A stretch of 64,000 bases of DNA. It comes from Octopus vulgaris (taxonomy: Eukaryota). The stretch lies in assembly GCA_951406725.2 (NCBI GenBank), contig OX597834.1:17050001-17114000 (forward strand). Direction: 5' to 3'. Under the pieces are notes generated by a model. That model searched no databases. It saw only the letters and a list, made by a program, of their open reading frames with translations, and was not told where the DNA came from. A program made the translations under genes and the position numbers. This document shows, piece by piece, positions 1-4,543 of the stretch (the stretch's first letter is position 1; every line of letters begins with the position of its first letter).

Positions 1-1064
1 TGATATATATATACATAAAACTTTCAATTTAGATTGCTTCAAAATGGGTTTGTATCATTAACCCAAGGGTGGTCTCAAAGGGGTTAGTATTAAAAGGATT
101 GATAACTAATCTATCAGGCAGTGAATCCATACAAAAGCTCTGATTCACTTTCAATTATTAGGTAGCAATTACAACATCCTGGTGATATGGGGGGCTGTGA
201 AGAAAACAGTCCATTCTTTCGCACAATGAACTTTTTACATTTTTTTCTGTGGTTGTGATGTTTACTTCATTAGTATATGAAGGAGACTAGATTTTAGGTT
301 TTGTTTGTGTTTATTGAGCCCTCGTGGTTGTAACAGATGTATGTATTTGAGGCATTGTTGTGAAGACTTTGTTAGTCTTCTCACAAGCACTGATATTGTT
401 TGACATGTGTAAGCCTTATAAGGCATTACTGGAAAGCTAAATACAACTGGTACATCCTTATGCATACACAGATTGGTTGTCCTACAGACTTCCTGAATGC
501 TGTACAGTATTATGATGGATGATGTGGTTGAGCTGGATGTGAACGATCTTGATCAGGTAGTACCATTTCACCCGAGACTGTCCTGGTTCTTAATATCTAG
601 ATCATTTTATTGTTTCAGTCATTTGCATGTGACCATGCTGGGGTACTGCCGTGAAAGGATTTAGTTGCCTCACCCACCCACAGAAGTACTTTTCAAATTT
701 TTGGAAGCCTGGTACTTATTTCATCAGTCTATTTTGCCGAACTGCTAAGTTACGGGTTTGTAGACAAACCAACACCAGTTGTTGAGCGGTGGGAGACAAA
801 ATACATATATACTATGATCTTTCAGCTTCCACCAGGGTTATAGCAGAAGACTCTTGCCTGAGGTGTCAGACAGCCACATCTGTGCCTATATGAATTAGAA
901 CCTTTTTTTTTATTTATTTCATATAAGTATTTTGCTAATTTTCTGAATTCCTCTATTTAAAATTTGAGAGTCTTGTGAAATGACAAATTTGGAGTGTGAA
1001 GATAGGCTGTATAGCAAACTCGTATTTTAACCAGAAAAAATTTTGTGGGGTGGGATTCTCTTTC

Positions 1065-1134
1065 TGCAGTCCAATGATTTAAACCTATTTCATTATCTTT
1101 TGTGCTGATAATCCTGCAATTATGAGGACTTGCA
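1065..1134 (+). ncRNA. SNORD96: Box C/D snoRNA, SNORD96-like (5.8S rRNA G75-equivalent methylation guide), copy 1
   Basis: Terminal stem tgcagtcc/ggacttgca, 3-nt bulge then C-like box ATGATTT (1074-1080), guide TCCTGCAATT directly before D-like box ATGA (1122-1125). Guide is complementary to conserved 5.8S AAUUGCAGGA. Vertebrate SNORD96A has the same guide and is also hosted in a RACK1 intron. Confidence 0.8.
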
Positions 1135-1818
1135 ATTTTCTTCATGGCTATATTTGCTTTGCTTGCTTTTACAGATTTGTATGGTTTAGAAGTAATTTTT
1201 CTTAACTCCATAATCTGCTATATTTTGTCTCGTACAAGTTCCTTCAATTTTTTCCCTTATTAGTCTTGGTTATAGGTACAGGCATGGTTGTGTGATCAAA
1301 AAGTTTGCTTCCCAACTATATGCTTTCAGGTTCAGTTCAACTATTTGGCACCTTAGGCAAGTGTTTACTATAACCCCAGACTGGTCAAATCCTTGCCATA
1401 ACATCCAGTGGTAGCTGTAAATGAGTGTCACTGTCATACAAGTGGTGTTCTTCAATTCCAGTCTTCTAAACATGTTTGGCCATGGAGAAATATTACCTTG
1501 GAAACAGTTGACGATTACTGGCGGGAAGAGCATCTAGCCATAAATAAAATTTACCTTAAACCATTCTGTCCAAACCATGTGGGCAGAGAAAAGTAGATGC
1601 TCAAACCGATGCTGCTGCTGATGAATTAATCGCAGTAACATGTTTTGTAGACACTCTCAAACTTAGGGCAAAGTTGTGGTTGATGTTAATTTTGAACTTT
1701 TCCTGGAAAAACATTGGTGAGTTAAGAATTCTAGAGGACTTAAGTTCTGGGAAGGAATGGTTAGTGTGCAGTGTACTAATTAATACTTTGCTAACCAAAC
1801 AACATTAATCCCTATTTC

Positions 1819-1887
1819 AGACTCAGTGATGGAAACAATTGTATTAGCTATTGATATGGAATGAGAACACCTTTTTTCTGAGAGTCT
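1819..1887 (+). ncRNA. Box C/D snoRNA candidate, family not assigned
   Basis: 6-bp terminal stem agactc/gagtct, C box GTGATGG (1826-1832), canonical D box CTGA (1878-1881), exact K-turn spacing. Internal TGTATTAGCT and AACACCTTTT match conserved 18S and 28S segments as I recall them. Confidence 0.7.
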
Positions 1888-2682
1888 TCACATTATATTG
1901 ATGTTGTTTGGTTTATCAATCAATGTATAAAGGCCTTTTGTGACTCTGTTTTAAATAAAATACACTGCCTATGTTTTCCATTTACCTTCTCTACCCACAA
2001 TTCCTGGGAGGGTCATTGGGATAAAGTCCTCACATACTCCTCTGTTGGGTCCTATCAGATGCAACTGTCATTTCTTCCTGGTCTCCCAAGTATAACCAGC
2101 TGAGACTGGATATTACCCATCTATCTTGTTCTTGGTCTACCATCAGGTTTCCTGCTGCTTGGCTTAGCTTGGTTCAAAGAATTTTTGTAATCCATTTCTT
2201 TGGTATTCCAATCACACTTCTGTAGTACCAGAACTGTGTAAAGAGGCAGTGGTTTGACCTGGAGAGACTCCTTGATTACCAAGTTACGCATCCTATCTAG
2301 TAACATTACTCCAGCTATCCTTCAATGGAATTGCATTTCAGGCACTTGTATTTGCAATCATACTGACAGGTCCCCGGCGGATTCTTTGCTGCCTGTGTTT
2401 CAAAAATGAAAATTATTGAGAGATCTTAAAATGCTTTTCCTTTAGTCTTGGAACAATCAGTACAGCATTGGAGAAAATATATTTAGTTATGTCCCTTTAG
2501 ACACTGATTCCACTTGACCGTTTACCTTCTGAAGTAGCATCAGTTCTGGGGTTCGAGGCATGGTTATGTATTATGGTGGGGAGGGGCATGTTTTCAGAAA
2601 GATAAAAAATTTGTTTCTTTTTCAATTGGCAAATTTACTCCTTTTCTCAGATGTTAATTTTGTACATGATATATATTGTTCC

Positions 2683-2756
2683 TTGCAGTCCACTGATTAA
2701 AACTTTCATTTCATTATCTTAAATGTTGATAATCCTGCAATTATGAGGACTTGCAA
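2683..2756 (+). ncRNA. SNORD96: Box C/D snoRNA, SNORD96-like, copy 2
   Basis: Paralog of 1065-1134: stem ttgcagtcc/ggacttgcaa, C-like CTGATTA (2693-2699), guide TCCTGCAATT, D-like ATGA (2743-2746). Lies about 83 nt upstream of the 3' splice site, the usual position for intronic C/D snoRNAs. Confidence 0.85.
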
Positions 2757-2829
2757 GTTTCTTTGTTACATTGCATCAGTATTTTAAAGGGGTTTTTTTT
2801 TTCCTTACTATTTCATTTCTCCATTTCAG

Positions 2830-2925
2830 GAAGAGGGCCACGCAGATTGGGCATCTTGTGTCCGTTTTTCTCCTAGCACCACTCACCCTATCATTGTGTC
2901 CTGTGGCTGGGATAAAATTGTAAAG
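2830..2925 (+). CDS. RACK1: RACK1 exon (96 nt): [32 protein letters not shown]
   Basis: ttcag acceptor, gtttgt donor. Translation matches RACK1 WD40 repeat 4. Upstream exons lie outside the window. Confidence 0.97.
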
Positions 2926-3049: not shown

Positions 3050-3160
3050 GTGTGGAATCTTACCAACTGCAAGCTGAAGACTAATCACCATGGACATGCT
3101 GGATTTTTGAACACTGTTACTGTTTCTCCTGATGGTTCTCTCTGTGCCTCAGGTGGCAAG
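3050..3160 (+). CDS. RACK1: RACK1 exon (111 nt): [37 protein letters not shown]
   Basis: ttctag acceptor, non-canonical donor AAG|gcaagt. Unmistakable RACK1 sequence. Confidence 0.97.
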
Positions 3161-3432
3161 GCAAGTTCATGTTCATTTTTTTTATTTATTTATTTATTTT
3201 TTTTTTACAATATATTTAAAGACTCCTGCTCTACAATTATGTATACTTCACAATACAATACCATTATTTGACCTGAAAGTAAAACTGTGCCTCTGATTTG
3301 TATTTCTAGTTAGGTGATGATTTAGAGAACAGTAATATGAGAATATCTATTTCTGGGAGTTTGGAATTAATATTTTGTAACCAATATTTCTTCATAATTA
3401 CATTGATTTTATTTTTTACTTCTTTTTTTTAG

Positions 3433-3603
<171 letters not shown>

Positions 3604-4369: not shown

Positions 4370-4543
4370 GATCTTGAAGGCAAAAATGTTGTTGATGAGC
4401 TTCGTCCAGAAGTTATTACCCAAAGTACAAAGTCACAACCCAACTGTATGTCTTTGGCTTGGTCTGCTGATGGTCAAACATTGTTTGCTGGTTACACAGA
4501 TAATAATATCCGTGTCTGGCAAGTGTCTACTGCCGCTCGCTGA
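4370..4543 (+). CDS. RACK1: RACK1 last coding exon: [15 protein letters not shown]...[30 protein letters not shown]
   Basis: ttgcag acceptor, 58 codons to TGA, canonical RACK1 C-terminus. Confidence 0.97.

Follow-up and report, generated by a model that had tools for sequence, protein, structure and literature searches.

Two probable SNORD96-type box C/D snoRNAs with a U-A box pair in a RACK1 intron of Octopus vulgaris

The RACK1 gene of Octopus vulgaris very likely harbours, in its third coding intron, two SNORD96-type box C/D genes (here referred to as B1 and B2) whose RNAs would direct 2'-O-methylation of G74 of the 5.8S rRNA, the equivalent of human G75. In both copies, the C and D boxes carry a U-A pair in place of the consensus G-C. 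The box swap itself is already on record for the SNORD96 of zebrafish rack1, in a supplement (PMC7668251); what is new is that the RACK1 host and the U-A arrangement may be common to fish and molluscs through common descent.

Host gene and anatomy of B1 and B2

The window, i.e., the 64,000-nt stretch of contig OX597834.1 that was analysed, starts inside the RACK1 gene (G000:C21). The gene comprises seven coding exons in a frame of 317 codons, with introns after coding nucleotides 109, 284, 432, 528, 639, and 780, and its identity is indicated by one exon whose best PDB matches are RACK1 (E 1.5e-31). The following features were mapped in the window:

1..2829, + strand: 3' part of RACK1 coding intron 3 (exon map; full length 4,499 nt, GT..AG), which hosts four snoRNA candidates
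1065..1134, + strand: B1, putative SNORD96-type box C/D snoRNA, copy 1 (sequence; Rfam SNORD96, 26.6 bits; 10-bp match to own 5.8S with D+5 = G74); stem arms 1068-1072 and 1126-1130, 3-nt bulge 1073-1075, C box AUGAUUU 1074-1080, C'-like box 1103-1109, guide 1112-1121, D box AUGA 1122-1125
2683..2756, + strand: B2, putative SNORD96-type box C/D snoRNA, copy 2 (Rfam SNORD96, 30.5 bits; own-5.8S match); stem arms 2687-2691 and 2747-2751, 3-nt bulge 2692-2694, C box CUGAUUA 2693-2699, guide 2733-2742, D box AUGA 2743-2746
2830..2925, + strand: RACK1 coding exon 4 (exon map; single genome match)
3050..3160, + strand: RACK1 coding exon 5, with a GC-AG intron after it (exon map)
3433..3573, + strand: RACK1 coding exon 6 (best PDB matches RACK1)
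4370..4543, + strand: last RACK1 coding exon with the stop codon (exon map)

The 5' end of the gene (L016:230-328) begins with a pyrimidine run and is 5'TOP-like; starts of this sort typify the genes of ribosomal proteins and those that host snoRNAs. Intron 5 opens with GC (window 3161-3162), and a GC donor has been reported for intron 2 of human RACK1, the host of U96A (PMC3941584).

The initial annotation described two paralogs sharing a terminal stem, a 3-nt K-turn bulge, and a guide, with UGAUU in the C box and AUGA as the D box of each, and this was confirmed at 1065-1134 and 2683-2756. Each copy has a 5-bp terminal stem in register plus a 4-bp extension, and a K-turn made of the 3-nt bulge, G-A, A-G, and U-U pairs, and next a U opposite an A, so that the boxes at the ends, tandem G-A, U-U pair, bulge, and stem of a box C/D guide are all in place. 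C-box G6 normally pairs with D-box C1 in K-turn stem II; where the consensus has G opposite C, the U at C-box position 6 faces the A at D-box position 1 in both copies, which supports the proposed compensatory U-A pair. The boxes (AUGAUUU in B1 and CUGAUUA in B2, with AUGA in each) depart from the consensus letters RUGAUGA and CUGA, including a U at C-box position 7 of B1 and a C at C-box position 1 of B2, where the consensus has a purine; the latter had been overlooked in the initial annotation. They were not treated as disqualifying, since the departure is compensatory and present in accepted members (nucleomorph and zebrafish, see below). A C'-like element, UG(C/U)UGA, aligns in both copies with the C' box of the SNORD96 family, and the D' box segment is deleted.

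The cores of B1 and B2 are 85% identical; six flanking 70-nt windows reach 41-51%, and 285 pairs taken at random from the intron reach 46 ± 4%. A blastn comparison of the intron with itself returned just two snoRNA pairs (B1/B2 and the A1/A2 pair described below) and a weak inverted repeat. That B1 has kept its boxes, guide, and stem beside flanks that have diverged to background argues for selection acting on it as an RNP. A scan of the intron for K-turn registers, devised post hoc with the candidates already known, yielded four candidates; 500 dinucleotide shuffles averaged 0.1, and none of them reached four. Nineteen of the 4,490 intron 10-mers are perfectly complementary to the octopus rRNA, and four of these are the guides of the four K-turn candidates. 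The folding energies of B1 and B2 are no better than those of shuffles (z -1.1 and -0.8) and were rejected as uninformative; unremarkable folding energy is usual for C/D RNAs. Contigs from sequencing runs under other organism labels show only 1-9 letter differences in each long contig, too few for covariation, and no change lies inside B1 or B2 among the listed rows of this comparison. One sequencing-run contig carries C>T at window 1105, turning the C' box of B1 into the form of B2.

Guide target, Rfam status, and genome-wide search

The target expected by the initial annotation, AAUUGCAGGA, is present in the octopus's own 5.8S rRNA, in all eight loci inspected of the 40 found in the genome. 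The B guide forms 10 Watson-Crick pairs with it at positions 1-10 upstream of box D, which places G74 at D+5. By a published rule, a guide should make 9 or more base pairs to rRNA within positions 2-10 upstream of box D (PMC7668251), and both B1 and B2 conform to it and to the SNORD96 pattern of a D-box guide to 5.8S G75. Methylation of this site is tabulated for fly, human, Xenopus, and Arabidopsis (PMC11014333). The proposed identity as SNORD96-type guides to a 5.8S G is supported by target match, best Rfam family, and host, and B1 and B2 are real elements and very probably functional SNORD96-type snoRNAs.

With relaxed thresholds, SNORD96 (RF00055) is the best Rfam family at both loci, B2 scoring 30.5 bits (E 0.012) and B1 26.6 bits (E 0.13), but both remain below the gathering cut-off of 43 bits. 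In the Rfam alignment, a 16-nt deletion removes the D' box, and the low scores are due to the loss of this segment too and not to the boxes alone. By target, host, and boxes, B1 and B2 are predicted SNORD96-type orthologs and not formal Rfam members. The initial annotation was right that threshold-based annotation misses them, since Rfam at the gathering score gave no match in the window and both are absent from the genome-wide SNORD96 search (51 candidates scored). Two genome-wide RF00055 matches were rejected as SNORD96 guides, being without the guide.

A 13-nt block common to B1 (1087-1099) and B2 (2708-2720) resembles the 28S guide of the SNORD96 family. As a second guide it was rejected, having fewer than 8 Watson-Crick pairs to the octopus's own 28S and no D' box. 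Having lost both the D' box and the consensus 28S guide of SNORD96, B1 and B2 are, as predicted from their sequence, single-guide RNAs. The octopus 28S differs at otherwise conserved guide targets, so that guide predictions require the animal's own sequence. The rDNA array lies on C20 as units of ~18.4 kb on the minus strand (L013:3603-8494, L014:2322-4970), and the rRNAs are long, with matches of 2,649 nt for 18S and 4,892 nt for 28S.

A genome-wide search for C box, guide, and D box gave 19 matches, with a 5-bp stem in register only in B1 and B2 and 0-3 bp in the others; with looser patterns, the stem never exceeded 2 bp in the 34 inspected of 68 further matches. Among these 19 + 34 inspected matches, B1 and B2 are the sole candidate guides found for the conserved 5.8S site. 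Roughly 17 of 30 inspected loose matches belong to a dispersed repeat of ~950 bp (L161, L167-L171, L173-L177, L179-L181, L183, L185, L189), whose copies are 85-93% alike, lack a terminal stem, and combine a C-box-like word, a near-guide, and CUGA by chance. A pattern scan of metagenomes gave 116 matches, none with an in-register stem of more than 4 bp and none near RACK1 (tblastn); these were discarded as chance matches and not homologs. RACK1 fragments in prokaryote assemblies were likewise rejected as a source of homologs: five of 48 loci are eukaryote-like RACK1, with no Rfam match and no guide. The five contigs concerned (L190-L194) show 63-84% identity over long stretches and are probably contamination.

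It is very improbable that both copies are degenerate relics, with another RNA guiding 5.8S G74 or the site being unmodified in octopus. The sub-threshold Rfam scores, the lost D' box, and the non-consensus C and D boxes are what such relics would display, and the remainder of the loose matches could hold another guide. In Xenopus oocytes, removal of C'/D' had little effect on D-guide activity, and guides lacking an internal K-turn tolerated alterations of the terminal one less well, where the tests reported altered the U-U pair and the bulge and not the stem II G-C/U-A pair (PMC6770171, as far as available). The greater sensitivity of such guides, taken together with the missing D' box of B1 and B2, is a point against working B1 and B2. 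Against this, both box changes compensate each other and recur unaltered in two old paralogs and in tabulated zebrafish SNORD96, and no other stem-flanked guide was present among the inspected matches, so that functional guides remain the preferred reading.

Relatives of the U-A box pair and its origin

The closest counterpart is zebrafish SNORD96, which, according to Supplemental Data 4 of PMC7668251 (row 5.8S_75), lies in sense orientation in a rack1 intron like the octopus copies, has GUGAUUU as its C box and AUGA as its D box, and thereby shares the UGAUU/AUGA state. It likewise has a UGUUGA-type C' box before a D-box guide to 5.8S G75, but keeps a CUGA D' box that the octopus copies lack, whereas the two copies and an intron shared with two other snoRNAs are octopus features. 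In the same source it is the sole guide listed for 5.8S G75 in a minimal collection of SNORDs that are expressed, which covers 93 of 96 sites. SNORD143 carries the same pair there, and these two are the only C-box entries among 11 UGAUU matches in the file (PMC7668251). Beyond vertebrates, GtNM-R12-14 of the Guillardia theta nucleomorph are expressed with AUGAUU/AUGA, i.e., the same compensatory pair as in B1 and B2; their authors spell out the compensation and cite Kuhn 2002 as having restored archaeal L7 binding with the double change (PMC6461891). The nucleomorph RNAs and SNORD143 differ from B1 and B2 in targets and hosts, and no homology is claimed. The Rfam U54 consensus shows the UGAUU/AUGA swap as well.

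The Rfam consensus of SNORD96 and the fly guide are canonical. Human SNORD96A (U96A) agrees with the octopus RNAs in RACK1 host, guide, and target (PMC3941584, PMC11014333), while the RF00055 consensus has GUGAUGA/CUGA and a D' guide, unlike B1 and B2; human RACK1 is reported to hold U96A in intron 2 and SNORD95 in intron 1, with one snoRNA per intron (PMC3941584). Drosophila snoRNA:Me5.8S-G74 (CD34; PMC11014333, Table S6) has the same target site, a length of 69 nt close to that of the octopus RNAs, and a C at C-box position 1 like B2, but a canonical G-C (CUGAUGA/CUGA) and Sf3b3, not Rack1, as host; this supplement contains no AUGA D box and no Rack1 host. A Xenopus annotation that searched for RUGAUGA/CUGA left SNORD96 as "?" though 5.8S G75 was noted as modified (PMC6984369), and the table of the fly paper lists a Xenopus guide "96" (PMC11014333). 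UGAUU/AUGA in RACK1 introns may thus serve as a search rule for "missing" SNORD96 genes such as this Xenopus entry. Literature searches returned no mollusc report, and the accessible parts of PMC13736004 and PMC3511168 contain no mention of RACK1; other supplementary files of PMC7668251 and PMC4914119, snOPY/snoDB, and genome annotations may already list the loci.

With zebrafish SNORD96 tabulated in the same state, two elements of the initial annotation lost their support, namely, that the U-A variant is a surprise or octopus-born, and that G-C has become U-A in the octopus lineage. The U-A state may be older than G-C. The sharing of the host with vertebrates fared better, as the octopus, human, and zebrafish hosts are all RACK1/rack1; the RACK1-SNORD96 linkage proposed for vertebrates and octopus holds for the gene, but the intron seemingly differs (intron 2 in human, coding intron 3 in octopus). 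This matching of intron numbers depends on the exon sizes of the human gene.

Inheritance of the U-A pair and the RACK1 host from the fish-mollusc ancestor is somewhat favoured over their having been reached twice, because the same host gene and the same rare box state occur in fish and octopus. Under such inheritance, fly and the lineages that underlie the Rfam consensus would have reverted to G-C. Caution is warranted since the comparison covers only two U-A lineages, unrelated families show the swap repeatedly, and the intron differs from that in human. An independent origin, with the RNAs working as described and the U-A pair and the RACK1 location arising separately in octopus and fish, is considered possible at less than even weight. 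The occurrence of the swap in unrelated families (zebrafish SNORD143, the nucleomorph RNAs, the U54 consensus) indicates that it arises repeatedly, the fly guide is canonical and lies in another host, the RACK1 intron number differs between octopus and human, and snoRNAs are described as moving among broadly expressed hosts, with host switching common (PMC3511168). Against this, an independent origin needs two coincidences in one family, the same host gene and a box state found in just two C-box entries of the zebrafish minimal list and in none of the D boxes of the fly table. Inheritance is therefore retained as the preferred reading.

The general view is that the link between a given snoRNA and its host does not survive over deep time. 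A host link and a rare box state common to fish and octopus would, if true, be a clean counter-example to this view, and they would suggest that the U-A pair is kept on purpose.

A putative second snoRNA pair and proposed release from a shared intron

Intron 3 holds four candidate C/D RNAs in the order A1-B1-A2-B2, which the initial annotation had missed, with spacers of 1,520, 690, and 801 nt. The additional pair is located as follows:

1819..1887, + strand: A2, a second kind of putative box C/D snoRNA (weak Rfam C/D matches; 10-bp match to own 18S); C box 1826-1832, D' guide 1840-1849, D' box 1851-1854, D box 1878-1881
G000:C21:17049479-17049551 (L016:4479-4551): A1, paralog of A2, ~450-520 bases before the window start

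A1 and A2 are 87% identical with flanks at background, and their stem II pair is the canonical G-C. The simplest explanation of the arrangement is that a cassette of two snoRNAs was duplicated in tandem long ago. The D' guide of the A pair forms 10 Watson-Crick pairs with the octopus 18S at positions 2-11 and points at U176 (counted from the start of the Rfam match), for which the pair is the predicted guide. Set against the zebrafish rows SSU_166 and SSU_172, this uridine corresponds to human 169. Human SNORD44 and SNORD45 have guides overlapping the same 18S stretch, whereas D'+5 of the A pair points to the U three places after A166, between two known sites; the uridine is absent among those zebrafish rows (PMC7668251), and the fly cross-species supplement, as a weak test, has no label for it (PMC11014333). 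The A pair has no Rfam family match above noise. Its identity as SNORD95, a guide to 28S A2802, was rejected, the best match of A2 being to 18S, and Rfam scans gave no SNORD95 match in the octopus RACK1 gene. The 3' guide of the A pair (8 Watson-Crick and 2 GU pairs to 28S) was discarded as well, its length being unequal between A1 and A2.

Intronic C/D snoRNAs have a preferred position relative to the 3' splice site. The stem of B2 ends 78 nt from this site, which fits the preferred position, and B2 probably arises through ordinary, splicing-coupled processing; B1 ends 1,699 nt away. Intron 3 would be released as a lariat and then debranched, and Snu13/15.5K would bind the terminal K-turn, in which both sheared G-A pairs and the U-U pair are kept and the next pair is changed from G-C to U-A. 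NOP58, NOP56, and fibrillarin would then join the complex, exonucleases would trim the snoRNA back to the stem, and the D-box guide would pair with 5.8S, fibrillarin methylating the nucleotide opposite D+5.

As four snoRNAs share one lariat, release of B1, A1, and A2 most likely requires cleavage between adjacent snoRNAs ahead of trimming, at about even odds against rare alternative splicing or stable sno-lncRNA intermediates. Trimming from the ends alone would leave a long sno-lncRNA-like RNA capped by A1 and B2, and an internal cut is preferred for this reason. A joint spanning the entire 4,499-nt intron at GT..AG was found in contigs from all four runs guessed to be RNA, and no internal GT..AG joint occurs among the 14 others listed inside the intron (15 of 35 joints listed; contigs drop rare forms). 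Contig depth is 3-13 on the intron versus thousands on the exons, which is uninformative on small RNAs, and contig ends are inconsistent between runs.

It is unlikely that only B2 works, with B1 (and A1/A2) stable only as sno-lncRNA ends or never released. The lack of an internal joint among those listed and the distance of B1, A1, and A2 from the branch point agree with this, and introns with two snoRNAs are reported to yield sno-lncRNAs in human cells (PMC10557570). The preserved boxes, guide, and stem of B1 speak against it, and we retain the reading in which B1 is functional too. A pyrimidine tract ending in CAG (1173) lies 39 nt past B1, with GTAATT 17 nt further on; this stretch (window 1150-1197) may be a hidden mini-exon, in which case B1 would lie in an intron of its own, and no joint was found there among those listed from the sequencing-run contigs.

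The broadest scenario combines SNORD96 residing in RACK1 with U-A since the mollusc-vertebrate ancestor, a return of mammals and flies to G-C, release of the octopus four-snoRNA lariat by a non-vertebrate route (internal cleavage, or else a sno-lncRNA of 3.3 kb with A1 and B2 as its end caps), and guidance by one of these RNAs of an 18S methylation unmapped in any animal; taken jointly, this is doubtful. The four-in-one intron offers a compact substrate for how animals release clustered intronic snoRNAs. A branch-point-like CTAAC followed by a pyrimidine run ending in CAG lies exactly at the 5' stem of A2 (window 1789-1820).
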